Below are positions 1 through 62,670 of a DNA stretch of 64,000 nucleotides, piece by piece. Positions within the stretch are counted from its first letter, which is position 1. The number at the start of each line of letters is the position of its first letter. The notes under the pieces were generated by a model. The model had not been told where the DNA came from and made no database searches. It was given only the letters and a program-made list of their open reading frames with translations. Position numbers and translations under genes: made by a program. The stretch covers positions 6,648 through 70,647 of the forward strand of contig JBFLVV010000011.1 in the NCBI GenBank assembly GCA_040758275.1. Reading direction: 5' to 3'. This stretch comes from Pseudomonadota bacterium. GTDB taxonomy: Bacteria; Pseudomonadota; Gammaproteobacteria; Burkholderiales; Burkholderiaceae_D.

Positions 1-2400
1 GAGAACGACCGCGTGGCACTGCGCGGCACCCCGTCCTCGCTGACGCTCACCACCCTGAACGGCCACTCGGTCTCGAGCGGCGACTGGTTCTCGGACAACA
101 TCATCGCCGGCGGCCGCAGCGTCAGCTTCACCCTGTTCCCCTCCGAGCTGATCGGCCGCGTGACGGTCTATAAGGGTTCGCAGGCCAGCCTGATCGACGG
201 CGGCGCCATGGGCCTGATCGACATCGAAACCCGCAAGCCGCTGGACCTGCTGCGCAAGCAGACCATCACCGCCCAGGCCAGCGTCGGCGCCATGCATTCC
301 GAGTACGCCAAGAAGACCGACCCGCAGCTGAGCGGCATGGTCGCCTGGCGCAACGATGCGGCCACCGTCGGCGTGCTGTTCCAGGCCTTCCACCAGAAGC
401 GCCACCTGAGCCGCGTGGCCCAGGAAAACTCGATCTGGTGGGACAAGGTCGAAGCCGGCTCGCCGATCGCGAACGCGATCCCCGGCTCGGTCGGCGCGAT
501 CGTCAACTACCTGGGCGGCACCGCCTGGTTCGAGCAGGAGCGCACCCGTACCGGCGGCCTGGTCGACCTGCAGATCCGTCCGAACAAGGACCTGAACCTC
601 GACCTGACGGTGTTCCATTCGAAGATGGACGCGCCGAACGTCAACCACAACTTCATGCAGACCATGGGCCGCTTCCTGGGCAATGCCTGGGCCGCGCCGT
701 CCTTCCCCGCATCGAACATCACGGGCACCGTCAGCAATGGCGTGATCACTTCGGTGTCGGCCACCGTCCCGGCCAACTGCACCGTGTGCGCCGACATGTC
801 GGGTTCGATCCAGGAGATCTTCGCGCGTCCGGTCGCGGAGAGCCAGTCGCAGTTCGTCAACCTCGACGGCAAGTACCGCATCAACGAGCTGTGGACCGTG
901 AGCGGCAAGGTCGGCACCACCAAGGGCAAGGGCAATACCGAGAGCGGGGCGCTGAGCAATCCGATTCCCTTCGGCGCCATCAGCTATAACCTGAACGGCA
1001 CGGACAAGGCGATCAGCTATGTGACCGCAGGCAGTGCCCAGCATGCCATCGGCGGCGGCTACGGCGGCGTGCCGGGCACCTTCGGTTCCCACGTCACCTC
1101 GAAGGACGAGGAGACCTATGCCCAGCTCGACCTCGAGCGCAGCCTGGACCATTCCTTCTTCCGCACCATCAAGTTCGGCGTGCGCGGCGCCAAGCATGAA
1201 CGCAGCCTGTCGGTGATCGACAATGGCCCGCTGGCGGGACTGACCGATCCGAAGAACCTGCCCCTGTACGGCCTGACCACCTTCCCGGAACACCTCAAGG
1301 ACGTTGCCGGGGTCGGCTCGAACTACTGGACCTTCAGCCAGGCGAGCGTGAACGACTGGGTGCGCAAGTACACCGGCTTCCTGGTGCGCCGCCGCCAGGC
1401 CGAATTCGACATCAAGGAACCGACCGCCTCGGCCTATGTGCAGGCCGACTTCGGCAACGACGCCGGCCTGTCCGGCAACTTCGGCGTGCGTTACGCCCGC
1501 ACCAAGGAGGACGTGCTCAAGTACGAGATGGGTCCTTCGGGCAGCTTCGAGCCGCGCAAGTACGAGAACAGCTACAAGGACGTGCTGCCCAGCCTGAACA
1601 TCCGCTACGAGATCTCGCGCGACATGGTCCTGCGTTCGGGCCTCTCGCGCACCCTGGCGCGTCCGGAACTGGGCGCCATGGCCGGCATCGACCTGCGCGA
1701 CCAGCAGCGCACCGGCACCACCGGCAACCCGAACCTGGCGCCGATCACCTCGGACAACTTCGACGTCGGCGTCGACTGGTACTTCGCACCGCGCTCGCTG
1801 CTGGCAGCGAACGTCTTCTATGCCGATATCGACGGCTACGTGTCCTACGGCGCCAGCTCGGGCATCTACTACAACCAGCAGGCCCAGGCCAATACCGAGT
1901 ACCAGACCAGTTCACCGATCAACTCGACGGCCAAGGTCAAGGGCGTGGAGCTGAACTATATCCAGACCCTGCCGCTCGGCTTCGGCTACAACGTGAACTA
2001 CACCTACACCGATGCCGAAGAGACCGGACGCAAGCCCGGTTCGGCCTGCGGCGCCGTGCAGTACGCGGACTGCACGATGATCGGCGCCTCGAAGAATGCG
2101 GCCAACGTCGGCGCCTACTTCGAGAACGACCAGTTCAGCGCGCGGGTGAACTACAGCTGGCGCTCGGGCTTCCTGAACGGCTTCAGCCGCAACACGGCCC
2201 AGTTCCAGGATTCCGTGGGCACGCTGTCGGCGACCTTCTCCTACCGCATCAGCGAGAACCTCAGCCTGTCCCTGGACGGCAAGGACCTGAACAACCCGAC
2301 GCACCGTTCGATCGTCAAGAACCCGGGCGCGCAGGACCTGCCGGGATCGATCTACCGTAACGGCCGCCAGTGGTTCCTGACCCTGAACGGCAAGCTCTGA
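1..2400 (+). CDS. TonB-dependent receptor, 5'-truncated (reading frame is open from position 1)
   Basis: Plug-domain motif ELIGRVTVYKG...GAMGLIDIETRKP, NPNLAP motif in the C-terminal barrel, and a C-terminal strand GRQWFLTLNGKL. Adjacent to GlcNAc/chitin genes. Confidence 0.93.
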   Translation, partial: ENDRVALRGTPSSLTLTTLNGHSVSSGDWFSDNIIAGGRSVSFTLFPSELIGRVTVYKGSQASLIDGGAMGLIDIETRKPLDLLRKQTITAQASVGAMHSEYAKKTDPQLSGMVAWRNDAATVGVLFQAFHQKRHLSRVAQENSIWWDKVEAGSPIANAIPGSVGAIVNYLGGTAWFEQERTRTGGLVDLQIRPNKDLNLDLTVFHSKMDAPNVNHNFMQTMGRFLGNAWAAPSFPASNITGTVSNGVITSVSATVPANCTVCADMSGSIQEIFARPVAESQSQFVNLDGKYRINELWTVSGKVGTTKGKGNTESGALSNPIPFGAISYNLNGTDKAISYVTAGSAQHAIGGGYGGVPGTFGSHVTSKDEETYAQLDLERSLDHSFFRTIKFGVRGAKHERSLSVIDNGPLAGLTDPKNLPLYGLTTFPEHLKDVAGVGSNYWTFSQASVNDWVRKYTGFLVRRRQAEFDIKEPTASAYVQADFGNDAGLSGNFGVRYARTKEDVLKYEMGPSGSFEPRKYENSYKDVLPSLNIRYEISRDMVLRSGLSRTLARPELGAMAGIDLRDQQRTGTTGNPNLAPITSDNFDVGVDWYFAPRSLLAANVFYADIDGYVSYGASSGIYYNQQAQANTEYQTSSPINSTAKVKGVELNYIQTLPLGFGYNVNYTYTDAEETGRKPGSACGAVQYADCTMIGASKNAANVGAYFENDQFSARVNYSWRSGFLNGFSRNTAQFQDSVGTLSATFSYRISENLSLSLDGKDLNNPTHRSIVKNPGAQDLPGSIYRNGRQWFLTLNGKL

Positions 2401-2411
2401 GTCCTAAGACT

Positions 2412-2513
2412 CCGTAGGGTGGGCAATCCTTTGCCCACGCGTTCAACTATCAAGGGCGTCGTCACAGCGCGTCCGGAGTTGAACGCGTGGGCGGAGGACC
2501 GCCCACCCTACGG
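2412..2513. repeat. REP doublet (REPIN-like, GTAG family), copy 1
   Basis: CGTAGGGTGGGCAATCCTTTGCCCACGCGTTCAACT (2413-2448) faces an inverted copy AGTTGAACGCGTGGGCGGAGGACCGCCCACCCTACG (2477-2512). A related doublet lies at 26481-26588. Confidence 0.85.
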
Positions 2514-2544
2514 TGCATGGCTAAAACCTTGGGAGTGCCCCACC

Positions 2545-4095
2545 ATGAAAAACGCCTCGAACATCAAGCAGATCGTGATCGTCGGCGGAGGAACGGCGGG
2601 CTGGATGAGCGCCCTGATCTTGGCCGATACGCTGGCACAGTCGACCACCATGCAAGGCGCCAGCATCACCCTGCTGGAGTCGCCCGTCGTCGGAACCATC
2701 GGCGTCGGCGAAGGCTCGACCCACGCCCTCAAGCGCTTCTTCGACACGCTGCGCATCGCCGAATCCGAGTGGATGCCGGCCTGCCACGCGACCTATAAAT
2801 GCGGCATCACGTTTGACGGCTGGTCGACGCGGCCCGGCTTCACCAGCTACTTCCACCAGTTCTCGACCATGGTGGACAACCTCACCCAGCCTTTCTTCAT
2901 GGCCAATGTGCAGGCGCGCCTGCGCGGCGTGGATGCACCTGGCTGGCCGAACGACTACTTCCTGTCGGCGCACCTCGTCAGGAACAAGCTGGCCCCGGTC
3001 ACCCCGGAACACTTCCCTTTCACGGCGAACTACGGTTTCCATTTCGACGCCACCCTGCTGGCGCGCTTCCTGCGCAAGAAGGCGCTGGAGCGGGGCGTGC
3101 GCCACCGCCAGTGCCACATCGTCGCGTCGAACCTCGATGCGGCCGGGGATATCGCCAGCGTCCGTTGCTCGGCGGGGGAGGAGTTCGCGGCCGACCTGTT
3201 CATCGACTGCTCGGGCTTTACCGGCCTGCTCATCGACAAGGCACTGAAAACACCCTTCCACAGCTATGCCAATGACCTGGCCAACGACGCTGCCGTGGCG
3301 ATGCCGACCCCGCACGACGGCGACATCGCGCCGCACACGGTGTCCACGGCCTTGAAGCACGGCTGGGCGTGGCAGATTCCGCTGACCACCCGCTATGGCA
3401 ACGGCTACGTCTACAGCAAGGCCTATTGCAGCGCCGACCAGGCGGAATACGAGCTGCGCGAACGACTCGGCCTGCTGGACTCAAGCGTGACGGCGCGCCA
3501 CCTGGCGATGAAGGTCGGGCGGGTGGAGCAGCATTGGAACCGCAACTGCGTGGCGATCGGCCTGTCGCAGGGATTCCTCGAGCCGCTGGAGGCGACGGCG
3601 CTGTTCCTGACCCAGACGGCGGCGGCGATCTTCGCGGCTTACCTGGAAGCGGGCGACTACGGCGAACGCGCGCGCCAGGCCTATAACCGCGAGGTGAATG
3701 GCTATTTCGACGGCCACCGCGACTACATCGTCGCCCACTACAAGACCAACAGCCGCCCCGATACCGCCTACTGGCGCGACCGCGCCAGGGACCCCGGCGC
3801 GGTCTCGGATTCGCTGCGCCAGGTCTTCGACACCTGGCTCGGGGGCAGGGACCTGGCCGCGGAGATCACGCGCCAGGGCCTCGACAAGTACTACCCGATC
3901 GGCTCATGGTATGCGCTGCTGGCCGGCATGGGCGTGTTCCCGCCGCCGACGCCGGCGCAGGCCAATCCGGCCTACGGGCAGCAGGCGCGCGAGATGCAGG
4001 AGTTCCTGCGCCGCTGCACGCTGAACTTCCGTAATCACATGGAGGTCTTGCGCGAGTACGAGAGCGCGGCCGGCGAGCAGGCAAGGGCCGCGTGA
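2545..4095 (+). CDS. Tryptophan-halogenase-family flavin-dependent enzyme
   Basis: GGGTAG FAD motif, GVGEGS, ATYKCGITFDGW (catalytic Lys position), GWAWQIP and GFLEPLEAT. ATG 2545 chosen because GGGAG lies upstream; the ORF-track start at 2419 falls inside the REP. Confidence 0.9.
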   Translation: MKNASNIKQIVIVGGGTAGWMSALILADTLAQSTTMQGASITLLESPVVGTIGVGEGSTHALKRFFDTLRIAESEWMPACHATYKCGITFDGWSTRPGFTSYFHQFSTMVDNLTQPFFMANVQARLRGVDAPGWPNDYFLSAHLVRNKLAPVTPEHFPFTANYGFHFDATLLARFLRKKALERGVRHRQCHIVASNLDAAGDIASVRCSAGEEFAADLFIDCSGFTGLLIDKALKTPFHSYANDLANDAAVAMPTPHDGDIAPHTVSTALKHGWAWQIPLTTRYGNGYVYSKAYCSADQAEYELRERLGLLDSSVTARHLAMKVGRVEQHWNRNCVAIGLSQGFLEPLEATALFLTQTAAAIFAAYLEAGDYGERARQAYNREVNGYFDGHRDYIVAHYKTNSRPDTAYWRDRARDPGAVSDSLRQVFDTWLGGRDLAAEITRQGLDKYYPIGSWYALLAGMGVFPPPTPAQANPAYGQQAREMQEFLRRCTLNFRNHMEVLREYESAAGEQARAA

Positions 4096-4109
4096 AGCCG
4101 CGCCGCGAC

Positions 4110-4856
4110 TTACAGCGCGTTCAGTTCGGCGACGAAGTCGTACATGTCGCCGCGGAAGAAGGAGCGGCAGAACTCGACGGCGCGCCCGTCCGCAAGAAAG
4201 CCGAGCCGCTCCACGCACAGGCCCGCCGCGCCGGGCCTGGATTCCAGCAGCTCGGCCTGTTCCTGGTTCAGGACGATCGCGGACAGGCGCTGCAGGGCGC
4301 GCACCGGGCGGTGGCCGGTCTTGCCGAGCGCCTCGTACATCGAGGCGTCGACGTCGTCGATGCTGCCCAGGGCGCTCTTGACCAGGGTCGCGTATTCGAT
4401 GCACATCGGGATGCCGTCGGCGCAGCGGATGCGGTTGAAGCGGTAGACCGGCGCGCCGGGCGAAAGGCGGAAGCGCAGCGCTTCTTCCGGCGTGACCGAG
4501 CCTTCCTGGCGCTTGAGCCAGCGGCTGCTCGGGACCTGCCCGCGCGCGCGGATGTCTTCCGAGAAGGAGGTCAGCTTGGCGAAGTTCTTTTCGACCCGCG
4601 GATGCACATTGATGTAGGTGCCGGAGCCCGGCGTGCGCGCCAGGATGCCGTCCGCCACCAGGCCGTCGATGGCCTTGCGCACGGTAATGCGCGAGATGCC
4701 CAGCTCGGTGGCCAGCTGCCGCTCGGCCGGCAAGGCCCGGTTGGGGCCGAAGAGGTGCTGCTCGATCGCCTGCCGCAGCGCGATTTCGAGCTGCTGGTAG
4801 AGGGGCAGGTTTCCGCCGGCGGCGACGGTTTGCATGATCCCCAGGAGCGGACTCAT
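4110..4856 (-). CDS. GntR family regulator with UTRA domain (HutC/NagQ-like), paralog 1
   Basis: PLYQQL...LPAERQLATELGISRITVRKAI wHTH, followed by LTSFSEDI and a UTRA-type C-terminus. Confidence 0.92.
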   Translation of the reverse strand: MSPLLGIMQTVAAGGNLPLYQQLEIALRQAIEQHLFGPNRALPAERQLATELGISRITVRKAIDGLVADGILARTPGSGTYINVHPRVEKNFAKLTSFSEDIRARGQVPSSRWLKRQEGSVTPEEALRFRLSPGAPVYRFNRIRCADGIPMCIEYATLVKSALGSIDDVDASMYEALGKTGHRPVRALQRLSAIVLNQEQAELLESRPGAAGLCVERLGFLADGRAVEFCRSFFRGDMYDFVAELNAL

Positions 4857-5019
4857 CAGATGTTTCCTTAGGTAAATTCTTGCTTGGGCAGCTGATGATC
4901 ATACCAAAAAACATGCACGCCGCATTGGCGGATTGCGGCCATTTTCTTATCTGACGCCCGCAGTGGCGCTAACCCGCCGGACCGCTCTGTGTGGCGCCGG
5001 CCTTGCACGAGGAATGACG

Positions 5020-6000
5020 ATGAAGCTGAAAGCTGTTTGCATCCTGCTGGCGCTTGCCACCAGCGCCCAGGCGGCGCCCCTGATGCGCGGGCCCTACAAG
5101 CACGTGCCCCAGCACCTGGGCGAGGACCTGGTGCTCGCGGCCGCGCCAGGCGGCGTACGCGCGCCCTACGTCGACGACGGCAAAGCGATGTACGGCAACG
5201 CGACCGTGTCGCTGGCCTTCGCGACCGGCGAATGCGGCAAGGAGACCTGGGGCGAGCCGGATGCGGACGCGCTCATGCGGGCCAACGTCCCGGCCTTCGT
5301 GAAGGCGGGCGTGCCCTATGTGATCTCGACCGGCGGCGCCGAAGGCATCTTCACGTGCACCACGCGCGCCGGCATGGACCGCTTCGTGGCGCGCTATATG
5401 TCGCCCATGCTGGCCGGCTTCGACTTCGACATCGAGACCGGGCAGACCGAGAAGCAGGTGGCGAGCCTGCTCAAACAGGTGCGCTACGCCCAGCAGAAGC
5501 ATCCGAAGCTGCGCTACAGCTTCACCATCGCCACCGTCGCCGCCTCGGACGGTAGCCGCCGCAGCCTCAACGAGACCGGGCAGATGGTGCTGCGCCAACT
5601 GCGCAAGAGCGGCATCAAGGACTACGTCATCAACCTGATGGTGATGAACCACGATACCGGCAAGCCTGCCAACTGCGTGGTGGGTGACAGCGGCAACTGC
5701 GACATGGGACGCTCCGCGATCCAGGCGGTGCGCAATGTGAACGAACGCTACAAGGTGCCGCTGTCGCAGCTCGCCATCACGGCCATGATCGGCGAGAACG
5801 ACAGGCCGAACAACCAGACCACGATCGAGGATGCGCGCGTGATGACGGAAGCGGCCGAGCGCATGGGACTGGCCGGCCTGCATTACTGGTCGCTCGACCG
5901 CGATACGCCCTGCACCGAAAAGGTGACGGCGGCCAGCCCGGTGTGCAGCGGACTTAACGTGGCGGCGGGCGAGTATGCCCGCGCCTTCGGTTTGAAATAA
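5020..6000 (+). CDS. Secreted GH18 chitinase-like glycoside hydrolase (short, catalytic domain only)
   Basis: Signal peptide MKLKAVCILLALATSAQA, ISTGG motif, GFDFDIE (DxDxE) and terminal HYWSLDRD. SD GAGGA at 5009-5013. Confidence 0.82.
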   Translation: MKLKAVCILLALATSAQAAPLMRGPYKHVPQHLGEDLVLAAAPGGVRAPYVDDGKAMYGNATVSLAFATGECGKETWGEPDADALMRANVPAFVKAGVPYVISTGGAEGIFTCTTRAGMDRFVARYMSPMLAGFDFDIETGQTEKQVASLLKQVRYAQQKHPKLRYSFTIATVAASDGSRRSLNETGQMVLRQLRKSGIKDYVINLMVMNHDTGKPANCVVGDSGNCDMGRSAIQAVRNVNERYKVPLSQLAITAMIGENDRPNNQTTIEDARVMTEAAERMGLAGLHYWSLDRDTPCTEKVTAASPVCSGLNVAAGEYARAFGLK

Positions 6001-6009
6001 GGGCGTCGT

Positions 6010-7512
6010 TCAGGGGGCGAATCCCGGTACGGGAATGATGCCCTCTGCCTCGAGGCGGCCGTCCAGCCAGTCCCGGACCGCCTCGAGGGCCGGCATCGCG
6101 AAACCGTAGGTGATCAGGGCCGGCGCCTCGATGTCCAGCGCGTGATAGGGGTTCCACAGCGCCAGGTGCAGGTCCGGCCGCCAGCTGCGGCGCGCATGCT
6201 CGCCATAGCGCAGGCGCGAGGTGGAGGCGAGGATGGTGTAGCTGCCGTCGTCCGGCAGCGCGTCCCAGTCGAAGCCGTCCTCGTCGACGAAGGTCACCAG
6301 CTCGAGCGCGCCCACTCCGCTCAGGCAGGCGGCGATCACGTCGGCCGGCACGCCCGCCTCCGACACGCCATCGCTGACCACGTCGCGGCGCGCGACCAGG
6401 CGCAGCCTGGCGCCCGGCGGCGGGCGGCGTGGTGCGCGATAGGCGGTGAGGCCGCGGCGCCAGCCCTCGACCATGCGCTGCCGGTCGGTGGCTTCCTCGT
6501 CGTAGGGCGCCTGGCCGCAGGGATAGCGCGCGGCCAGCGCGGTCAGCCTGGCGCGCCGCTGCGCCGCTTCCCTAGGCGGAACGGCGCCAGAAGCGAGGGC
6601 ATGCGCGATCGCGGCCAGCGTCTCTTCCTGGGTTTCACGGGTGCCGAGCGCCATCACCATGTCGGCGCCCGCCTGGAGCGCCTGCACCGCCGCCTGGCCG
6701 GCGCCGTAGCGTCCGGCGATGGCATGCATGTCCATGCCGTCGGTGATGATGACGCCGCGGTAGTCCCATGCTTCGCGCAGCAGGCCGCCCAGGATGGGAC
6801 GGGACATGGTGGCGGGATAATCGGGATCGAGGCTGGGGTAGACGATGTGGGCGCTCATGATGGCGGGAGCAATGGGCGCGGCCATGCGGAAGGGGAGGAA
6901 TTCGAAGCGTTCCAGTTCTGCCAACGGCTTGTTCACGACGGGCAGCTCGCGGTGCGAGTCGACGTGGGTATCGCCGTGGCCCGGGAAGTGTTTGACGCAG
7001 CAGGCCACGCCCTGCGCCTGGCTGCCTTCCATCCAGGCCAGGGCCAGTTCGGTCGCGCGTACGGGTTCGGCGCCGAAGGAGCGTTCGGCGATCACGGGAT
7101 TGTCGGGGTTGTTGTTCAGGTCGAGCACCGGTGCGAAGTTCCAGTTGAAGCCGAGCGACCTGACCGCGCGCGCGACGGCCGCGCCGGTCTGGCGCGCGAG
7201 CTCCAGGTCGTCGGCCGCACCCAGGCCCATCGCCGCGGGCGGCGGCGGCAGCCAGGTCGAGCGCACCACGGCGCCGCCTTCCTGGTCGATGGCGATCAGG
7301 GCCTCCGGTCCCATCGCGTCGCGCAGGGCCGCCGTGAGCGTGCGTACCTGTTCGGCGTCGCGCATATTGCCTCTGAAGAGGCAGACGCCGCCGATACTGT
7401 TCTCGCGCAGGAATGCGCCCGTTGCGGCATCGAGTTCGGTGCCGGGGAAGCGGATCATCATCAGCTGTCCGGCGATTTTCCTGTACTGCGGGTCCAGGCT
7501 TGTCTGGCTCAT
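6010..7512 (-). CDS. nagZ: GH3 beta-N-acetylhexosaminidase
   Basis: IDQEGGAV, KHFPGHGDTHVDSH (NagZ-type Asp-His dyad) and IITDGMDM nucleophile. No signal peptide. Confidence 0.88.
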   Translation of the reverse strand: MSQTSLDPQYRKIAGQLMMIRFPGTELDAATGAFLRENSIGGVCLFRGNMRDAEQVRTLTAALRDAMGPEALIAIDQEGGAVVRSTWLPPPPAAMGLGAADDLELARQTGAAVARAVRSLGFNWNFAPVLDLNNNPDNPVIAERSFGAEPVRATELALAWMEGSQAQGVACCVKHFPGHGDTHVDSHRELPVVNKPLAELERFEFLPFRMAAPIAPAIMSAHIVYPSLDPDYPATMSRPILGGLLREAWDYRGVIITDGMDMHAIAGRYGAGQAAVQALQAGADMVMALGTRETQEETLAAIAHALASGAVPPREAAQRRARLTALAARYPCGQAPYDEEATDRQRMVEGWRRGLTAYRAPRRPPPGARLRLVARRDVVSDGVSEAGVPADVIAACLSGVGALELVTFVDEDGFDWDALPDDGSYTILASTSRLRYGEHARRSWRPDLHLALWNPYHALDIEAPALITYGFAMPALEAVRDWLDGRLEAEGIIPVPGFAP

Positions 7513-7548
7513 TGGTGCTCCGTGCTTGAAGGGTGCTTGTTCAGAGGG

Positions 7549-8283
7549 TTAGCGCTGCGACTCGGTGACGTAGCCGTAGTAGTCGCTGCGGAACCAGGAA
7601 TGGGTCAGTTCGACGGCGGCGCCGGAGCCGAGATAGCTCACCCGCGTGATGTGCAGCATGGCGGTGTTCGGCGCCAAATCGGTCAGGCGCGCCTGCGCGG
7701 CGCTGGCGTTGACCGCGCGGATGTGCTGCAGGGCGCGCACCGGGTGGATGCCGCGCTCTTCCAGGTAGTCGTAGAGCGAATCGCCGACTGCCTGCGGATC
7801 GGGCATGTAGACGGCCGGGATGGTGGAGGTCTCGATCGCCATCACGATCTCGTCGGCGGTGCGCAGGCGCTTGAGCCGGACCACCGGCATGTTCGGCGAC
7901 AGGCCCAGCGACAGCATCTCGAGCGGCGTGGCGGCGCCAAGCTCGCGCGACAGCCAGATGGAGCCGGCCTTCGCGCCGCGCTGGCTGAGCTCCTCGGAAA
8001 AGCTGGACAGCCGCGACAGGGGTTGCTCGAGCTTGGGTGTGATATAGGTGCCTGAGCCACGGACCCGGGTCAGGACGCCGCGCTCGCACAGGAGGTCGAT
8101 CGCCTTGCGTGCGGTGACGCGCGAGATGCTCAGCATGCCGGACAGCGTGCGCTCGGAGGGCAGGGCCTCATTGGCGCGCCAGCGGCCCTTGCCGATCGCG
8201 TTCGACAGCTTGTTCGCCAGCTGGATGTACAGGGGCGTCACGTCCGCGGGATCAGGCCGGAAGGCCTGCAGTTCTTCGTCCAT
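7549..8283 (-). CDS. GntR family regulator with UTRA domain (HutC/NagQ-like), paralog 2
   Basis: PLYIQL...LPSERTLSGMLSISRVTARKAI and LSSFSEEL. Start set at ATG 8283 (MDEELQ). Confidence 0.9.
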   Translation of the reverse strand: MDEELQAFRPDPADVTPLYIQLANKLSNAIGKGRWRANEALPSERTLSGMLSISRVTARKAIDLLCERGVLTRVRGSGTYITPKLEQPLSRLSSFSEELSQRGAKAGSIWLSRELGAATPLEMLSLGLSPNMPVVRLKRLRTADEIVMAIETSTIPAVYMPDPQAVGDSLYDYLEERGIHPVRALQHIRAVNASAAQARLTDLAPNTAMLHITRVSYLGSGAAVELTHSWFRSDYYGYVTESQR

Positions 8284-8399
8284 TGCGGTCAAGAGGCGAG
8301 GGCGCCGCAAGCGTCTGCGCTGAGAAGATGCTGGGTCATCGTGGCCTTTCTTGCAATAAAGTCCGGTAAATATAGGTCGGACCGTACCACTAAGTCAAT

Positions 8400-10307: not shown

Positions 10308-13286
10308 ATGCTGGACCTTGCCAATGACTTGGGCATATCGGCCTTGCTGGCGCGCTTCACCCAGGATACCCGTCTCATCCGCCTGACAACCGCGCTGGGC
10401 AGCGACCTGCTGGCCGAGTGCGTGCGCGGCGAAGAAGCGATGAGCCAGGGCTACGCCTTCGACATCGAAGCGCTCTCGACAGACGCCCACCTGGAGCTGA
10501 AGCGCCTGATCGGCCAGCCAGCCCTGGTGCAACTGCTGACCTCGACCAGCCATGAGGATCTGCGCCCCTTCCATGGCTACGTCAGTTCGGTCGAGATGAC
10601 GGGCGCCAACGGCGGCTTCGCCCGCTACCTCCTCAGGCTCACTCCCTGGACCAGCTTCCTCTCGCACGGACGGGACAGCCGCATCTTCCAGGACATGAGC
10701 GTCTTCGACATCCTCGACGTCGTCTTCGGCAGCTACACCGGCCGGGGACGGATCGCTCCCGCCTGGCGCTTCGACATCGCCGACCCAAGCGTCTATCCGA
10801 AACGCAGCCTCACCACCCAGTACCAGGAAAGCGACCTCGCTTTCGCCGAGCGCCTGATGCTGGAAGAGGGCTTGTTCTACTTCTTCGAGCACAGCGGTGA
10901 GCCGGACAGCCCCTCGCTGGGCAGCCACACACTGGTGATCGCCGACCACAACGGCGCCTTCCAACCGAACGCCCAGGCCACCGTCGAGTTCACCCGCCCT
11001 GGCGCCGTCATGAAAGCGGACAGCATCGACCGCTGGCGCAGCGAATCGCGCCTGCTGACGAATGCCATCGAGCTGGGCAGCTGGGACTACCGCACGGTAC
11101 GCCATCGCCAGGTACAGGCCGCGTCAAGCGGCGACGGACCACAGCTGTGCCACCGTGACGCGCCCGGCGTCTACGCTTGGCAAGACCGCGAGCAGGGCCA
11201 GCGCCTTGTCGACAACCATCTTCAGGCCATCGACGTAAGACGCCAGGTCTATGTCGGCGCGGGGACGGTGCGCACCTTCGCCCCGGGCACGACCTTTACC
11301 CTGCACGGCCACGCGGTACTCGACAGTTTGGACCATGACGATGGGAGGACGTTCGCCATCGTCCGGGCCGTTCATCTGATGCACAACAACCTGGGCGCGG
11401 ACCTGCTCGATGGCGTCCACAAGCTGCTGGGGCAGGGGAGTGTGGCTGCAGCTGCGGCTGGAGAAACTGCCTGGAGGATGCCGGAGGATCGACCGCTGTA
11501 CCGCAACCGCATCGACGCCATCCCGGCAAGCCTGCCTTACCGCAGCTGTGCCGGCGACGGCCGCGGCGCCATCCTGCACCCCAGGCCGACCGTCCACGGG
11601 CAGCAGACCGCCGTCGTCGTCGGTCCGCCTGGGGCGGTCGTTCATACGGACCGGGATCACCGCATCAAGGTGCAGTTCCACTGGCAACGCGGTGCGGCCA
11701 GCCACAGCCGCATGGAGCATCCGTCGCCGGACGGCCATACCGGCGCCCCTGGCGACGACAAGGCCGGCACCTGGGTGCGTGTGGCGACGCCGGTGGCCGG
11801 CGCGAACTGGGGCAGCAATATGGTGCCGCGCGTCGGGCAGGAGGTGCTGGTGGATTTCATCGATGGCGATATCGACCGGCCTGTCGTGATCGGCTGCCTG
11901 TACAACGGACGCGGGCGCCCGGATGCGGCGCACAACGCGGTCGGGCAGGGAGCCGGCGCGGTGACGGGCAACGCGGCGCCATGGTTCCCGGGGGAGAGCG
12001 GCGGGCATGCGCATCCTGCGGTGCTGTCGGGCTTCAAGTCGCAGGCAATGGGGGCCAGCCAGAGCGGGGATGGGGCCTACAACCAGTTGGTGTTCGACGA
12101 TACCGCGGGGCAGGGACGGATTGCTCTTCAACACCATTCGAAAGCGCATGACGGGGCGGCCGAGCTGAATCTGGGACATCTGCGGCACCAGAGCGGCAAC
12201 GAGCGGCTGGACACGGTGGGTTTTGGTGCGGAACTCAAGACGGCAAACAGTGCAGCCTTGCGTGCGGGGCAGGGCATGTTGCTGTCGACGGATGCGCGCA
12301 CCGGGGTACGTGGCAGCCAGCTGGGTGCGAGCGAGGCGGTGAGCCAGATCGAAGCATGCCATGGCCTGCAGCTTGATCTCGCGACGCTGGCGCAGAAGCA
12401 CAACGCCAAGCTGAAGGATGAGCCGGAGCCTGCGGATTGTCCGGCAATCAAGCAGATGGCGCACAGCGCGGAAGTCTTGCAGAACATGGATGGGACGGCC
12501 GAGGCGTATAGCGAGCCGCAGCTGCAATTGTCGAGCCCGGCAGGCATCGTTGCCTGCACGCCGGCGGATGCCGTGGTGTCGGCGGGGACGACCGGCAGCA
12601 TCGTTGCGGGGCAGGACATCAATTTTGCTGTGCAGGGGAATGCGTCCACGCTGGTGGCGAAGGGGATCAGCTTTTTCACCTATGGCAAGACGACGAATGC
12701 ATCGAAGCCGAATCAGGAGGTGGGCATCAAGCTGCATGCGGCCAGTGGGAAATTCAGCAGCCAGAGCCAGTCAGGGCCGACTTCGCTGACGGCAGACAAG
12801 AAGATCACCGTCGCCAGCATCACGAAATCGGTGTCGATTTCGGCGCCGAAAAAACATGTGCTGCTGACTGCGCAGGGCGCTTACATCAAGCTCGAGGGTG
12901 GGAATATCGAGGTGCATGCGCCAGGGAAGGTGGACTTCAAGGCGAGCAAGAAGGAGCTGGCTGGGCCGCGCAATGTCAGCATTGACGTACCTCGCCTACC
13001 TACACCTGAAGAACTTCTGAGTGCCGAAAAGCCGTTTTACAGTCAGCGGTTCGATCTGTCCCATTTAGCGTTGAATCATCCACTAGGATTTTCAACTGAG
13101 CGTTTGCCGTACGAGGTATTCGATGCTGAGGGCAAGTTTATTACGTCGGGGGTAACAGATGCTAATGGCCTGACAGACCGGATATTGACCAATTCCGAGA
13201 CCGATCTCATTATGTTAATTGGTGGTGGGTCGTGGCAAGTGGAAGAATATATTGAAGCCGCTAAGGAAGATCACACAGTGAAATAG
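10308..13286 (+). CDS. vgrG: Type VI secretion spike protein VgrG with DUF2345 and a C-terminal extension
   Basis: QYQESDLAFAERLMLEEGLFYFFEH, DHRIKVQFHWQR, WVRVA..AGANWG..VPRVGQEVLVDFIDGDIDRPVVIGCLYNG, GIEV..PG/KELAGP end of DUF2345. SD GGAGG upstream. Confidence 0.95.
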   Translation: MLDLANDLGISALLARFTQDTRLIRLTTALGSDLLAECVRGEEAMSQGYAFDIEALSTDAHLELKRLIGQPALVQLLTSTSHEDLRPFHGYVSSVEMTGANGGFARYLLRLTPWTSFLSHGRDSRIFQDMSVFDILDVVFGSYTGRGRIAPAWRFDIADPSVYPKRSLTTQYQESDLAFAERLMLEEGLFYFFEHSGEPDSPSLGSHTLVIADHNGAFQPNAQATVEFTRPGAVMKADSIDRWRSESRLLTNAIELGSWDYRTVRHRQVQAASSGDGPQLCHRDAPGVYAWQDREQGQRLVDNHLQAIDVRRQVYVGAGTVRTFAPGTTFTLHGHAVLDSLDHDDGRTFAIVRAVHLMHNNLGADLLDGVHKLLGQGSVAAAAAGETAWRMPEDRPLYRNRIDAIPASLPYRSCAGDGRGAILHPRPTVHGQQTAVVVGPPGAVVHTDRDHRIKVQFHWQRGAASHSRMEHPSPDGHTGAPGDDKAGTWVRVATPVAGANWGSNMVPRVGQEVLVDFIDGDIDRPVVIGCLYNGRGRPDAAHNAVGQGAGAVTGNAAPWFPGESGGHAHPAVLSGFKSQAMGASQSGDGAYNQLVFDDTAGQGRIALQHHSKAHDGAAELNLGHLRHQSGNERLDTVGFGAELKTANSAALRAGQGMLLSTDARTGVRGSQLGASEAVSQIEACHGLQLDLATLAQKHNAKLKDEPEPADCPAIKQMAHSAEVLQNMDGTAEAYSEPQLQLSSPAGIVACTPADAVVSAGTTGSIVAGQDINFAVQGNASTLVAKGISFFTYGKTTNASKPNQEVGIKLHAASGKFSSQSQSGPTSLTADKKITVASITKSVSISAPKKHVLLTAQGAYIKLEGGNIEVHAPGKVDFKASKKELAGPRNVSIDVPRLPTPEELLSAEKPFYSQRFDLSHLALNHPLGFSTERLPYEVFDAEGKFITSGVTDANGLTDRILTNSETDLIMLIGGGSWQVEEYIEAAKEDHTVK

Positions 13287-13334
13287 GCGCGAAGCTGCTC
13301 CGGGCATCACAGGCTCTTTAGATATCAAACACCT

Positions 13335-14582
13335 ATGGCTGAAAAAATTTATACTATTCAAGTATTATTCTTGGATGCTGATCGAAATCCGATAAAGGAT
13401 CAGCGTTATCGACTCTATTTTAACGGTGCAATGGTTTCCGCTCAAACCGGGTTGGATGGCTTGTCAAAAAAAATAAGAACAAAATCCTCCGGTGACGAGA
13501 TACAGATAGCTGTCGAGAGATTAGATAAATCAATCAAAGTTGTTGCCCGAGTGTTTTCTGAGGTTGGGAGTAAACTGGTTACATTGATCAGCCCGAAGAT
13601 CAAGATTGCTAGTTCGACCTTACCCCATACCACCGCCTCCGCTGGACAAGTACCCAGCAAGAAAGAATCTGGCCCTCCAATCTACGATCCGCAGAGGCCG
13701 AAAAGCCCGACGGTGAAGAAAGATTTTGGCACAACCGTCGCGGCGCAAAAAAATCAGGCTGGAAATCCTGTCTCGAAGATCGAAGGAGATATACCGAACC
13801 TCGAGTTTTTAGACGAATTTAATGGCGAGGTCATGACTGACGATGATTACCTGTGGGCGTCAAAAAGACTTGGCATTGAATTTGCTGCGATCAAGGCTTT
13901 TGCGATCGTTGAGTCCATGGGTAAGGGCTTTATAACGATTCGAGATAAAACCCTACCTAAAATTCTATACGAGCGCCATAAATTCGCTGCATTTACAAAC
14001 AATGAGTTCAGCAAGCTAAACCCAGACATATCGTCACCTTGTGGCTATTATTATCGGGAGCAACTGTATGTGCCAGCAACCAAAGAGAACAAGAAGCGGA
14101 AGAAGATTCCTGAGGATGTAGATTATTATCGTCCGGTAAACACCAAGGACAACGACGAGACAAAGGCTGAAGCGAGGAAATTCAAGGATCTCGTCAAAAG
14201 TGAGGTACTGGACTACGAGACGCATGCATATTTTGATGGAATAGGTAGCTATAGACGACTGATTAAAGCATACAAACTACATCCGGAAGCAGCGCTTGAA
14301 AGCTGTTCTTGGGGCAGTTTTCAAATTATGGGGGAGTATTGGAAGACAATGGGGTACGCGAGTGTGGCCGAATTTACGAAATCGATGTCTCGCTCACCGA
14401 AGGATCAGGTAAAAGCTTTTGTCTTGTACATTGAGCTTGTAAATCCAAAAATAAGGAAATATTTAAAGGCCTTGGATTGGGAGTCTGCTGCGAGAGCATA
14501 TAATGGACCAAGTTACCGATTGAATAAGTATCACATAAAAATCCGAGAAGCATATGAGAAGTTTAAACGGGAGGAGTCATGA
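13335..14582 (+). CDS. Putative T6SS effector with C-terminal N-acetylmuramidase (DUF3380-like) domain
   Basis: AIKAFAIVES.G.GF...PKILYERHKF, AALESCSWGSFQIMG and WESAARAYNGPSY..NKYH motifs. AT-rich, directly downstream of vgrG, no signal peptide. Confidence 0.8.
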   Translation: MAEKIYTIQVLFLDADRNPIKDQRYRLYFNGAMVSAQTGLDGLSKKIRTKSSGDEIQIAVERLDKSIKVVARVFSEVGSKLVTLISPKIKIASSTLPHTTASAGQVPSKKESGPPIYDPQRPKSPTVKKDFGTTVAAQKNQAGNPVSKIEGDIPNLEFLDEFNGEVMTDDDYLWASKRLGIEFAAIKAFAIVESMGKGFITIRDKTLPKILYERHKFAAFTNNEFSKLNPDISSPCGYYYREQLYVPATKENKKRKKIPEDVDYYRPVNTKDNDETKAEARKFKDLVKSEVLDYETHAYFDGIGSYRRLIKAYKLHPEAALESCSWGSFQIMGEYWKTMGYASVAEFTKSMSRSPKDQVKAFVLYIELVNPKIRKYLKALDWESAARAYNGPSYRLNKYHIKIREAYEKFKREES

Positions 14583-15244
14583 AAAAAAATGCGATGTTAA
14601 TTATCCTGGCCATACTCCAATGCGCAAGTATTTCGCTTCATGCTCACGAGTTGAAGCGTTCGGCTAAGACCGATAGCTGGGAGAATCCGTTCATAGCCTA
14701 CGGATACAATCCGAAGACTAGAATAACAACAGGATATTTAGCGGCGCTAAGGATTTCTCCAGGGAGGACCGATGAGTGCAAGTTAGTATTCGCTGGCGAC
14801 ATCGATAAATCTCATAATTTTTCTGTGAAATATACTGCAGAGACCGGGACTAATGGGAGCCAAGAGCCACCGCGTAGGAGTGTTTCTCTATTCGGGAGGC
14901 AGGATGCTTCAGAGCTTAAGTTCATAAAGAAAGACATGGGGGGGGATTGTGATTGGGTACTCCCATTTGTCGTCGAGTCAGAAGTGCCAGAAAATCCAGA
15001 TGAAGTTATCGTTGCAATGGAAGCTAAAAATGTCGGAGATTGGGTTTCCGTGTATGTAATTAGAGCGAAGAAAGCGCAGTTCTATAGTCAACCGGACAGT
15101 TCAACAGCGAAGAAGGCTTTCCTGGTGAAAGGCGATGTTATTTACGTTTATGAAGAGCAGCCTGAGTGGTATTTTGTTAAGTACGATAACGGGAGGAGAA
15201 AGACGGAAGGGTGGATAAAAAGGTCCGACACATTGCAACCGTAA
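14579..15244 (+). CDS. Putative periplasmic immunity protein with C-terminal SH3b-like domain
   Basis: Sec signal peptide; C-terminal KAQFYSQPD...KAFLVKGDVIYVYEEQPEWYFVKY..GWIK resembles SH3b. ATGA overlap with the effector stop and GAGGAG SD; AT-rich. Confidence 0.65.
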   Translation: MKKNAMLIILAILQCASISLHAHELKRSAKTDSWENPFIAYGYNPKTRITTGYLAALRISPGRTDECKLVFAGDIDKSHNFSVKYTAETGTNGSQEPPRRSVSLFGRQDASELKFIKKDMGGDCDWVLPFVVESEVPENPDEVIVAMEAKNVGDWVSVYVIRAKKAQFYSQPDSSTAKKAFLVKGDVIYVYEEQPEWYFVKYDNGRRKTEGWIKRSDTLQP

Positions 15245-15370
15245 CTTTGTTATGTACTCAGAGTCTTTGCATTACCGGTAAGGCGAGATGCACCAAAATT
15301 TGCGGGCCTTGAAAATTCGATTGTGAGTACAACATGCAGTTTTAACCACATCACGATGAGGAGCACCACC

Positions 15371-16027
15371 ATGAGCCCATCCGATACCCAAAAACTGCAT
15401 GACTTCCTCGGCCAACTCGTCCAGGCCCGCGGCATCCAGAAAGACCCCGAAGCCGATGCCCTGATCCAGCGCGCCGTCGCCCAGCAACCGGACGCCGCCT
15501 ACCTGCTGGTCCAACGCGCACTGCTGATGGAGCAGGCCCTCGACGCCGCCAGGTCGCGCATCGCCATGCTGGAAAGCCAGCTCGACAACCAGCAGCGCAG
15601 CAGCGGCGGCTTCCTCGATCCGAACAGCTGGGGCAACCGCCACCGCTCCCATCCGCCGCAACACCACCAATCCCAACACATGTCCTGGCAGCACGCCTTC
15701 CCCAGCTTCTCCAACCGCAGCGGTGGTGGCTTCCTGCGTGGTGGTGGGGGCGGAGGCTTGCTCGGCTCGATCGCCGCAACCGCCGCCGGGGTCGCGGCGG
15801 GCAGCTTCCTCTTCCACGGCCTCGACAACCTGTTCCACGACCACGATGCCGGCGGCAACGCCAGCCACTTGCTGTCCGATAACGACCAGTCAGGCAGTGC
15901 GCTGGCCGACCAGGCCGGCATCAACGACATCGGCCAGTCCGACAACCTGCTCGACGATGGAGGCGGCCTCGACGGCCCCGGCGGCTTCTTCGACGGCGAC
16001 GGTTCCGACGAGGGCCTGTTCGGCTAA
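15371..16027 (+). CDS. DUF2076 family protein
   Basis: KDPEADALIQRAVAQQPDAAYLLVQRALLMEQAL, Gly-rich GFLRGGGGGGLLGSIAATAAGVAAG and an acidic tail. SD GAGGAG at 15358. Confidence 0.8.
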   Translation: MSPSDTQKLHDFLGQLVQARGIQKDPEADALIQRAVAQQPDAAYLLVQRALLMEQALDAARSRIAMLESQLDNQQRSSGGFLDPNSWGNRHRSHPPQHHQSQHMSWQHAFPSFSNRSGGGFLRGGGGGGLLGSIAATAAGVAAGSFLFHGLDNLFHDHDAGGNASHLLSDNDQSGSALADQAGINDIGQSDNLLDDGGGLDGPGGFFDGDGSDEGLFG

Positions 16028-17710: not shown

Positions 17711-17971
17711 TTACTCCACGATCTGTTGCGGACGGCGGCCGAACAGGGCCGCTGCGACGAATTTCAGCAGCAGGAAGCCGACGAACAGGGTCAGCGCGAG
17801 GGGCACGATGGTCATCAGGCAGGCCAGCACGATCGACACGGCCAGCAGGGCCGGCCAGGGCAGGGCGGCCAGGGTGCGGGCGCCCGAGCGCACGGCACGG
17901 TTGCACTTGCGGCCGATGTCTTCCATGTCGGCGACAAAGGAGCGGAAAGCGGAGCGGGTGGCGGTTTTCAT
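17711..17971 (-). CDS. 86-aa membrane protein, first gene of the LytTR operon
   Basis: Hydrophobic stretch LPWPALLAVSIVLACLMTIVPLALTLFVGFLLLK; stop lies 3 nt before the kinase ATG, in the same frame. Confidence 0.7.
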   Translation of the reverse strand: MKTATRSAFRSFVADMEDIGRKCNRAVRSGARTLAALPWPALLAVSIVLACLMTIVPLALTLFVGFLLLKFVAAALFGRRPQQIVE

Positions 17972-58000: not shown

Positions 58001-58180
58001 AGCCAGATCGACCTGAACGCGGCCTACAACTTCACCAAGCAGCTCAGCCTGACCGCCTCGGTGCTGAACCTGACGAAGGAAGAGACCCGCGCCTATCTGG
58101 GCAACGACACCAAGAACCGCTTCTACTCGAACGGTTACACCGGACGTGTCGCTTACGTGGGCCTGAACTACAAGTTCTAA
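55067..58180 (+). CDS. TonB-dependent receptor (carbohydrate-locus type)
   Basis: Signal peptide, TonB box TVVVTG, AEDVGKFPDKNVADALQRVPGV, GEGKNVSVRGL, LDEGGIGGTV and terminal YVGLNYKF. SD AAGGAG. Confidence 0.96.
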   Translation: MMFSKVLASRHAVRPSATPIATAVAMAVLSMSAQAQTTTDAPAAGQAEPGKATTVVVTGYRYAIEKSLDQKRDANAIVEVVTAEDVGKFPDKNVADALQRVPGVVVTRSGGEGKNVSVRGLSSELTLTQLNGNYIATAESNGDPTRSFNYTLMPSNMLGSAELYKTPEARLDEGGIGGTVILRTRRPLDVESGSGFVNMEGTWADTTKKTDPQISGQYAWHDKSNRFGVLVGFTQQKRTVRTMSATTENWQWYGDDYDGHPATDVNGKPSDLNSYWWGESGFNDQNGKYYTNFMMPTSVNFNVREEERERKGGQVTLQFKPLRNLNMTANYFRFDLKQNSQTNTLKVPEWNIARYAGDGNWPGGRLLDGLTFDPSGTIVTGADYSIHPGKAYYCSEAQAAAAGQKPGGWGPDDCTVPTPQITGSYNREKSLSQAFDLEVEWKGESIDATFKGGRTWAKGGPELQFSAPMKPRMQNADGSWSLGNTATSWSLAGTPSMTFSPQLMANLRNGIAEIDLGSTASSWTKNSTEQNYAQADFTWHTDSSWLDSVQFGAKYRDGGISRSTGNNYWTCKGLTGYDNRYQNGCDNNANKFRPEFMYSESLPNIVGAINASAFPGINFPAYISYLNSTYGAMQTRNEDNFVYNVDEKISALYFQANIKTERLRGNVGLRYVRTKQHADSTDQVDYYNDYFFNGPDGKPAPCLAGGAPAAGAPSGSGCISGFTVLPDSNTNPATRHISTFEISALDRTYNDLLPSFNLAYDLSDTLLLRAAASKVIARPSYGDIGSPGSLRYFSQEYVNDRRLIGGGDQQGWYGSGSNKSLEPYQADQYDLGLEWYFQRGSVLGGGLFRKNVKNFSVPVVRDIQLSIAGQNVTVQNYSTSAGGRDAVSQGVELYTQHTFNNGIGFQLNYTYNDTNQAAITLEDGTEIGKSPLVGSAKNQTNLTVFYSNDKMLLRASYNRRGEVVNGLVNGLNVYEEPYSQIDLNAAYNFTKQLSLTASVLNLTKEETRAYLGNDTKNRFYSNGYTGRVAYVGLNYKF

Positions 58181-58193
58181 GCGTTTCCGTTTC

Positions 58194-58255
58194 CTCCCCG
58201 GTGCATCCTGCCGGGGAGTCTTTTTCCCAGGCTTTGCCGGTTGTTCCGGCAAGGC
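58194..58255 (+). terminator. Terminator-like hairpin plus a second hairpin between the receptor and the halogenase gene
   Basis: CTCCCCGG/CCGGGGAG followed by TCTTTTT; GCTTTGCCGG/CCGGCAAGGC. Confidence 0.6.
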
Positions 58256-58275
58256 CGTCTTCGTTTGGGACATTC

Positions 58276-62441: not shown

Positions 62442-62496
62442 CAAAAGTTTGTTTACTAAAAATGAGCTAAAAAAGCCGCGCTTTACGCAACTGCGG

Positions 62497-62526
62497 TTGA
62501 CGCTGCCAAAACGCCGCTGATATAAA
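62497..62526 (+). promoter_or_regulatory. Sigma70-like promoter of the LacI gene
   Basis: TTGACG-N18-TATAAA. Confidence 0.55.
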
Positions 62527-62622
62527 AACTGACTATGAAAAGGAGTGGCGCGAAGGCGCCCTCCGACAGCAGGAAGACGCGCTACAAAACGCGTTTAATA
62601 AAACAAAGACTGGAGACTTTTC

Positions 62623-62670
62623 ATGCACGTCATTTCGCTGCATGGCCGGCGCCTGGAGCTGCGGCCATGA
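62623..62670 (+). CDS. Candidate 15-aa leader ORF MHVISLHGRRLELRP coupled to LacI
   Basis: TGGAGA SD 6 nt upstream of ATG 62623; TGA 62668-62670 overlaps the LacI ATG (ATGA). Confidence 0.4.
   Translation: MHVISLHGRRLELRP

Follow-up and report, generated by a model that had tools for sequence, protein, structure and literature searches.

A predicted muramidase effector and its candidate immunity protein in an exchangeable cassette at an orphan vgrG locus

Closest described systems

Tae17 of Acinetobacter baumannii is a peptidoglycan (PG) hydrolase that is encoded as cargo beside vgrG17, with an N-terminal beta-sandwich, a transthyretin-like (TTR-like) tail on its VgrG, a downstream immunity gene and no separate adaptor gene (PMC11796386). 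Its N-terminal immunoglobulin-like (Ig-like) and LysM region binds the C-terminal TTR-like region of VgrG17 (PMC11796386). In this study, we describe a similarly built locus in a 64,000-nucleotide stretch of bacterial DNA (contig JBFLVV010000011.1; hereafter the window). It comprises three open reading frames (ORFs) on the forward strand: a vgrG gene (ORF1, 10308-13286, 992 amino acids (aa)), a gene for a predicted muramidase (ORF2, 13335-14582, 415 aa) and a gene for a protein with a signal peptide (ORF3, 14579-15244, 221 aa). We consider it very probable that this is an orphan ('auxiliary') type VI secretion system (T6SS) vgrG island in a Massilia/Telluria chromosome, with an exchangeable three-part cassette consisting of the VgrG tail, a cargo muramidase and a Sec-exported periplasmic immunity protein. 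The gene arrangement and the predicted domains of Tae17/VgrG17 recur here, the VgrG tail being a candidate for a TTR-like domain, and LysM is found in Tae17 as well as in most relatives of ORF2. Unlike Tae17, which combines a lytic transglycosylase with an amidase, ORF2 has a single PF11860 muramidase as its predicted catalytic part. The domain order differs too, since LysM precedes the beta-sandwich in the relatives of ORF2, and the N-terminal domains of both proteins are likened by description, not by sequence.

The catalytic part of ORF2 also resembles the PF11860 endolysins of phages, namely Pae87 (7q4s/7q4t), AP3gp15 (5nm7), LysT84 (7rum) and Gp110 of a Salmonella phage, with which it shares the fold and a Glu-Glu-His-Tyr cleft. 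N-acetylmuramidase activity was demonstrated for these endolysins, whereas that of ORF2 is predicted. Unlike them, ORF2 has no PG_binding_1 module and possesses a beta-sandwich N-domain, a linker and an insertion of ~54 aa in the beta-lobe. Furthermore, its gene stands behind vgrG and is not part of a lysis cassette, and a dedicated, putatively periplasmic partner accompanies it.

PF11860 domains were previously predicted as T6SS toxins in the I-type C-terminus of Vibrio cholerae VgrG-3 (PMC5361080), in WHIX effectors (PMC12135965) and in Ame of Pantoea agglomerans (bioRxiv 10.1101/2023.03.17.533219). ORF2 has the toxin domain, the downstream candidate immunity gene and the cassette-like variability in common with them. 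However, those effectors are fused to VgrG, carry WHIX or are encoded in an hcp island, whereas ORF2 is separate cargo and has an N-domain of its own, with a counterpart tail on VgrG or PAAR. In the literature we found no paper that characterises a PF11860 T6SS effector or the immunity family of ORF3; such effectors appear there as predictions only. An earlier note on this DNA, made from the sequence alone, had suggested that the pair may be uncharacterised, and this holds for both the effector family and the immunity family.

Orphan vgrG islands whose VgrG selects the adjacent effector through a TTR-like domain at its C-terminus were described for VgrG1-Tle1 of enteroaggregative Escherichia coli (EAEC; 6sjl) and for VgrG4b-PldA and VgrG5-PldB of Pseudomonas aeruginosa, where the TTR-like tails specify PldA and PldB (PMC6684961). 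A tail swap redirects the effector in those VgrG systems (PMC6684961). The locus in the window is similar to these islands; in contrast to ORF2, their effectors are phospholipases, and the similarity between the VgrG tails is weak (E 0.03 to 6sjl). The Tge families (Tse3/Tge1, Tge2 and Tge3) are T6SS muramidases that act in the periplasm of the prey and are neutralised by periplasmic Tgi proteins; unlike ORF2, they belong to different lysozyme-like sequence families. As in the auxiliary clusters of V. cholerae (PMC5361080), effector/immunity modules appear to be replaced at a fixed locus by recombination, and orphan immunity genes are kept. Unlike the Vibrio arrays, each allele has a single slot, the strands cross over in the end of vgrG that codes for DUF2345, and the populations are those of soil Massilia.

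By this comparison, the delivery architecture mirrors that of Tae17/VgrG17, and module exchange and orphan immunity are already known from Vibrio. Our understanding of T6SS islands is left unchanged by this locus, whose interpretation has solid support and will not surprise a specialist. What it adds is a well-delimited, apparently unstudied family of putative glycan-cleaving T6SS cargo effectors with a matching spike adaptor, together with a new candidate immunity family. Most members of the effector family are from Oxalobacteraceae and other Betaproteobacteria, with further ones in Geobacterales. Its hosts are soil and rhizosphere bacteria, in whose habitats T6SS warfare shapes communities.

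The VgrG tail and the predicted cargo muramidase

By domain criteria, ORF1 is the T6SS spike protein VgrG (TssI). It contains Phage_GPD, Phage_base_V, T6SS_Vgr and DUF2345 (aa 728-887) in this order; the Pfam profiles PF05954, PF04717, PF13296 and PF10106 all score above the gathering threshold, corresponding to a gp27-like hub, a gp5 OB fold and a beta-prism, and the NCBIfam model TIGR03361 reaches 343.5 bits compared to a cut-off of 186. The VgrG core (10308-12968, aa 1-887) ends with ...KELAGP and has a host-like GC content of 0.64-0.72. It is followed by a C-terminal extension (12969-13286, aa 888-992) that is AT-rich (GC about 0.48) and cassette-specific. Around VgrG aa ~870-900, directly behind KELAGP (its Pro codon ends at 12968), the GC content of third codon positions (GC3) decreases from 0.75-0.9 to about 0.5. 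With this boundary located within vgrG, the final ~105 residues of VgrG belong to the cargo cassette. The GC content from 12969 to 15322 is 44.6%, compared to 66.7% across the remaining window, and this is the sole low-GC dip, as every other 2-kb stretch has at least 61% GC. The earlier note had listed the vgrG gene, a DUF3380-like muramidase without signal peptide and an overlapping signal-peptide protein, and all three are present where it had placed them. Its hand-counted GC values (39/60 for 11041-11100 and 25/60 for 13381-13440) are exact, and the composition shift it saw just after KELAGP (~12970) and the host-like composition it saw from near 15370 agree with the GC3 drop and with a recovery at 15350-15400.

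At its 3' end, the cassette is bordered by an AT-rich spacer (15245-15371) in front of a conserved DUF2076 gene. The ORF of this gene was listed from a GTG at 15323 (15323-16027, 234 aa). Its orthologues have 218-219 aa and GAGGAG precedes an ATG at 15372, which is probably the true start; the spacer of the cassette would then extend up to 15372. No terminator was found after ORF3 in a promoter/terminator scan, in which the remaining matches were consensus-level only and enriched by the AT-richness.

The VgrG core is 88-95% identical at the nucleotide (nt) level to five syntenic loci (L003, L005, L088, L089 and L090). The tail is about 50% identical in two loci (L029 and L058) whose VgrG cores are ~32% identical to that of the window, is missing in VgrG alleles of 889 aa and is swapped for an unrelated tail in one protein (P0176). 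Judged from these comparisons, the tail follows the effector and not the VgrG core. A Pfam search with the tail gave nothing useful at E <= 10. With phmmer, it weakly matches residues 741-822 in the TTR-bearing C-terminal part of EAEC VgrG1 (6sjl, E 0.03), and a profile of 24 VgrG tails aligns with 54 effector N-domains across 51 columns at an hhalign probability of 94%. The last ~105 aa of VgrG are thus probably a TTR-like adaptor for the effector.

In ORF2, aa 182-411 match PF11860 (Muramidase, formerly DUF3380) over the full profile (1-175) with an E-value of 2.6e-49 and 168.3 bits (cut-off 22.3), and a sequence search of the PDB returned the phage endolysins Pae87 (7q4s, E 7e-35), AP3gp15 (5nm7) and LysT84 (7rum). 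PADLOC and NCBIfam gave zero matches. An AlphaFold2 (AF2) model built from 98 homologues has a mean predicted local distance difference test score (pLDDT) of 89.8. The modelled catalytic domain (13830-14582, aa 166-415) superposes on Pae87 7q4s as a lysozyme-like two-lobe fold (Foldseek E 3e-14, template modelling score 0.86, root-mean-square deviation 2.7), with E193, E213, H215 and Y399 in the cleft aligned to E29, E46, H48 and Y174 of Pae87. All four residues are invariant in the 98-sequence alignment. In Pae87, Glu29 and Glu46 (Glu101 and Glu118 of AP3gp15) were validated as catalytic by mutation, and His48 and Tyr174 line the cleft (PMC8972805, PMC5674055). On the basis of sequence and model, ORF2 is a predicted member of the PF11860 N-acetylmuramidase family. 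The beta-lobe contains a structured insertion of ~54 aa (aa 237-290, nt 14043-14204) that the phage enzymes do not have. This insertion is rich in Lys and Asp and is also missing in some family members (P0092, P0116 and P0119).

The N-terminus of ORF2 has neither a hydrophobic stretch nor a signal peptide, and residues 6-13 form a beta-strand in the AF2 model. Residues 1-92 (13335-13610) are modelled as a six-stranded, Ig/TTR-like beta-sandwich (pLDDT about 90), which we propose as the docking domain for the VgrG tail. Foldseek matches of this domain are carboxypeptidase-regulatory/TTR-like domains and are weak (E 5e-3 to 0.07). The following linker (13611-13829, aa 93-165) is Pro/Lys-rich, with a beta-hairpin at aa 134-150, a pLDDT of 60-82 and conserved G132, G143 and D152 (alignment A2). 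The first ~165 residues have no Pfam match, and separate Pfam searches with the N-domain and with the muramidase insertion gave nothing useful at E <= 10. When 1.84 billion representative proteins were scanned in full with HMMER, the N-terminal 160 aa were recovered in only 62 clusters, nearly all of them proteins of 400-470 aa with the same architecture including PF11860 and usually with an extra LysM at the N-terminus; a word-indexed search with the N-domain alone gave 2 matches only. One metagenomic relative (P0261) is a fusion of PAAR, LysM, N-domain and muramidase. A 2571-aa invasin-like protein (P0249) was considered as a second architecture with the N-domain and rejected, the similarity being of the generic Ig/CarboxypepD_reg kind.

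Among 5.8 billion proteins, we detected 167 homologues of ORF2, mostly metagenomic; those with a name are from Massilia, Pseudoduganella, Noviherbaspirillum, Paraburkholderia, Aquabacterium and Geobacterales. Linkage was counted in 80 genome loci, considering only homologues with enough upstream sequence. A VgrG end lies directly upstream in 37 of 42 homologues with the N-domain, whereas the count is 3 of 27 where the muramidase domain stands alone (Fisher p = 1e-10). In four of the five N-domain homologues that deviate, a spike gene or a piece of one is still found upstream or nearby, namely a PAAR gene immediately upstream (L016 and L054), a Tox-PAAR-like gene nearby (L069) or an upstream DUF2345 fragment (L045). 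The PAAR proteins of L016 and L054 carry a domain like the VgrG tail, and the C-terminus of the former matches the tail in the window. From these sequences, adaptor and effector appear to be portable between VgrG and PAAR carriers. Both of these loci are from Geobacterales, and the protein that precedes the effector homologue has ~200 aa (L016:9267-9854, L054:9213-9851). In Pseudoduganella lutea, the homologue is located within a complete T6SS cluster (tagF, ompA-like, tssA, vgrG, effector, a 238-aa gene, then clpV, tssG, tssE, hcp and tssC). The link of the pair to the T6SS, which the earlier note had proposed, is well borne out by this adjacency, the P. lutea cluster and the PAAR fusion.

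The resemblance to phage enzymes raises the question whether ORF2 and ORF3 are phage-derived lysis cargo (an endolysin and an accessory protein) that lies beside vgrG by chance and is independent of the T6SS. The best matches of the catalytic domain are indeed phage endolysins, and a low GC content is common to many prophage remnants. However, the low-GC segment begins inside vgrG, and the form with the N-domain stands beside VgrG or PAAR in 41 of 42 loci, which is not the case for the short, endolysin-like forms. ORF3 is modelled as a beta-rich SH3b protein and is not holin- or spanin-like. Moreover, the window contains no phage gene, integrase, holin or spanin, the flanks being genes of the major facilitator superfamily (MFS), GntR, GH3, DUF2076 and LytTR/histidine kinase (HK) types. 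A lysis cargo, which the earlier note had named as one of the findings that would speak against its proposal, is hardly credible here.

The candidate immunity protein and the alleles of the locus

The start of ORF3 overlaps the end of ORF2 by 4 bp (ATGA) and GGAGG is found 5 nt upstream of it, from which ORF3 is predicted to be translationally coupled to the effector. The protein begins with MKKNAMLIILAILQCASISLHA, followed by HE, and this is a Sec-type signal peptide (aa 1-22, nt 14579-14644). The AF2 model (pLDDT 85.6) suggests a beta-rich domain (aa ~28-150) and a C-terminal SH3b domain (aa ~155-221); Pfam gave a weak SH3_3/SH3_2 match at aa 169-216. The family comprises 54 proteins in the 5.8-billion-protein collection, in which C67, C124 and several Trp and Gly residues are invariant. 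In Foldseek, only the SH3b part resembles known structures, and the N-domain has no structural match in the PDB at E <= 1e-3. A Pfam search with the N-domain gave nothing useful at E <= 10, no PDB profile match of ORF3 was significant, and NCBIfam and PADLOC gave 0 matches each. By Pfam (SH3 only), NCBIfam, PADLOC, PDB and Foldseek, ORF3 fits no curated T6SS immunity or defence family. HMMER and Foldseek had been recommended for both ORFs in the earlier note; they returned a Pae87-like muramidase for ORF2 and an SH3b match as the only one for ORF3.

The same order of flanking genes (GntR-GH3-GntR-MFS-[vgrG...]-DUF2076-LytTR-HK) recurs in several assemblies, and at least four alleles were found at this Massilia locus, which diverge right after ...LAGP or ...LLGP. 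The first (L005-L007) has the same cassette as the window; one protein (P0001) is 99% identical to ORF2. The second (L003/L004) has a divergent muramidase cassette, with protein identities of 75% for the tail, 62% for the effector and 52% for the immunity protein, whereas the VgrG core (92%), DUF2076, HK and GntR proteins are 92-97% identical to those of the window. DNA identity is here about 60% between ~13000 and ~15400, down from about 88%. In the third (L090:2900-7947, L091:325-5372), a 963-aa VgrG with the same core continues with an unrelated tail after ...KKQLLGP and is followed by two genes, the first for a protein of 436 aa whose C-terminus has transmembrane helices and the second for a polytopic membrane protein of 262 aa. 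Neither gives a Pfam match; their GC content is 0.45-0.49, and they are probably an unrelated, membrane-targeting effector/immunity pair. In the fourth (L088:10001-13391, L089:7826-11216), VgrG ends with ...KELAGPKK (889 aa), no muramidase is found and only a 220-aa homologue of ORF3 follows, which retains the signal peptide, the Cys pair and the SH3 tail. The flanks of L088/L089 are 93-95% identical to the window at the nucleotide level. From its gene content, the fourth allele is an effector-less form with an orphan immunity gene.

Of the comparative evidence, this allele speaks most strongly for ORF3 as an immunity protein, since ORF3 is kept where the toxin is lost. A role of ORF3 as a periplasmic immunity protein is thereby supported by prediction and comparison, and both this role and the use of the vgrG 3' end as a swap point, as put forward in the earlier note, gained from the comparison of the locus across related genomes that it had advised. 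Alternatively, ORF3 could be a co-secreted or accessory factor, e.g., a chaperone or a helper that binds PG. Lysins typically use SH3b domains to bind the cell wall, and no known immunity family was matched. Nevertheless, the Sec signal peptide and the disulfide cysteines point to the periplasm of the producer and not to a cytoplasmic loading route. In addition, the gene of ORF3 follows that of the toxin with translational coupling, the protein diverges more quickly than the effector, and it is retained alone after effector deletion. We therefore regard an accessory role as unlikely.

The alleles also bear on the idea that ORF2 is not a toxin, but a self-acting PG remodeller that opens the sacculus of its own cell for T6SS assembly, as TagX or MltE do. 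This would be in line with a PG hydrolase that is genetically linked to T6SS parts. However, ORF2 has no signal peptide or membrane anchor with which to reach its own periplasm, its periplasmic partner diverges fast (52% identity compared to 92% for the VgrG core), and the slot is elsewhere taken by an unrelated membrane-toxin pair or has lost ORF2 with the partner kept. Slot replacement, deletion with retention of the partner and divergence of the partner are the behaviour of an effector/immunity pair and not of a core accessory, so that we consider self-remodelling very improbable.

The breakpoints of the cassette lie at about 12968 and about 15400, where similarity to the other alleles resumes. 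A contig from a soil metatranscriptome matches the window up to 12967 and then continues with a sequence read as the tail of the third allele (L090-type); from its switch after 12967, the junction falls on the Pro codon of LAGP. Several alleles seem to coexist in one soil community. The flanks of the window and the metagenomic locus L005 are 94.5% identical (199 mismatches in 3600 nt), whereas the tract from ~12400 to 15400 is 98.9% identical (34 mismatches in 3000 nt; binomial p = 1e-36), which indicates a recent recombinational transfer of the shared cassette. L088-L090, with similar flank divergence, hold other cassettes. The tract extends from within the DUF2345-coding sequence to the beginning of the DUF2076 gene, consistent with homologous recombination in which these two sequences serve as arms. 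All cassettes at the slot, and also the distant homologues in other genera, have a GC content of 0.44-0.50 in genomes of 0.64-0.68. AT-richness is thus a standing property of every cassette and low GC alone cannot date the acquisition; on this ground, it was not accepted as sufficient evidence that the DNA had recently come from an AT-rich donor. The recent acquisition suggested in the earlier note is instead upheld by the tract shared with L005. The natural series of two muramidase alleles, a putative membrane toxin and an orphan immunity gene would be a ready system for work on the turnover of effectors, the retention of immunity and the specificity of spike tails, and the precise crossover after ...LAGP makes the locus easy to exploit experimentally.

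Potentially, the module could be a silent or decaying orphan without a working T6SS that is kept for its immunity gene only. No core genes are found within the 64 kb, which the earlier note had already remarked on: Pfam detected none among about 40 ORFs of the window, and tblastn with TagF, TssA, ClpV, TssG, TssF, TssE, Hcp and TssC of P. lutea gave no match. Close relatives are already without the effector and the VgrG tail, and AT-rich DNA is often silenced. On the other hand, the three ORFs are intact with conserved catalytic residues, and the same cassette has recently passed from one lineage to another in intact form. Cassette fragments were found in four soil metatranscriptome assemblies (runs X5, X8, X9 and X10) as pieces of 150-310 nt with 0-2 mismatches over the VgrG tail, ORF2 and ORF3 (13045-14739), and one piece (13053-13362) spans the junction of vgrG and ORF2. 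Furthermore, several T6SSs per genome are common in Massilia and Pseudoduganella (PMC11481896). A silent orphan is accordingly improbable in our view.

We propose that the effector, which has no signal peptide, is synthesised in the cytoplasm and that its N-terminal region would dock on the C-terminal adaptor of VgrG at the tip of the spike. A T6SS encoded elsewhere in the genome would fire it into the periplasm of neighbouring Gram-negative cells, where it would cut the MurNAc-GlcNAc glycan backbone by means of Glu193 and Glu213 and lyse the target. In sister cells, ORF3 would be exported to the periplasm, be stabilised by a C67-C124 disulfide and neutralise the effector, and it may be kept at the sacculus through its SH3b domain. 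The cassette would spread and be replaced among Massilia strains by homologous recombination, with the DUF2345-coding 3' part of vgrG and the DUF2076 gene as arms.

Several points weigh against this proposal. Secretion, docking, toxicity and the mode of protection are steps that we infer, and the working apparatus is assumed, as none of the about 40 ORFs is a T6SS core gene. The evidence for a TTR-like fold of the VgrG tail, i.e., the E-value of 0.03 to 6sjl and the hhalign probability of 94%, is weak or indirect. The N-domain is kept in the PAAR-fused relative, where docking should be unneeded, and it could serve cell-wall binding instead of, or besides, loading onto the spike. An immunity protein with an SH3b domain is unusual, so that ORF3 could have an additional or different role. 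Finally, the metatranscriptome signal has a low depth and could include carry-over of DNA.

It is tempting to speculate that ORF3 represents a structurally new class of muramidase immunity, in which SH3b tethers the protein to the cell's own PG and the disulfide-stabilised N-domain blocks the effector at its substrate, and that the homologous TTR-like domains of spike tail and effector fit together like a 'plug-and-socket' that could move between VgrG and PAAR carriers. This combined idea is doubtful at present, if conceivable. If true, protection by ORF3 would be organised at the sacculus and not by a freely diffusing inhibitor.

Surroundings of the island

By Pfam, the about 40 ORFs of the window have catabolic, transport and regulatory functions, including TonB receptors, halogenase-like proteins, GntR/GH3/MFS genes, pyrimidine and purine catabolism and nitrate/nitrite assimilation. 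NirB and a protein of the hydantoinase pathway group with Massilia/Telluria proteins at >=90% identity, which identifies the host as a Massilia. Two pairs of genes for a TonB-dependent receptor and a tryptophan-halogenase-like protein are located at 13-8310 and 55067-63653, accompanied by GntR/UTRA regulators, GH3, a GH2 mannosidase-like gene, a LacI regulator and an MFS transporter. Both regions look like loci for the utilisation of glycans or amino sugars. The position of the vgrG island beside the first of them seems coincidental, because the same slot elsewhere holds an unrelated putative toxin. Two further ORFs are conserved in the syntenic loci and have no Pfam match: one of 86 aa (17711-17971, reverse strand) upstream of a LytS-like kinase/LytTR regulator pair, and one of 355 aa (4933-6000, forward strand) between a GntR gene and the GH3 gene.

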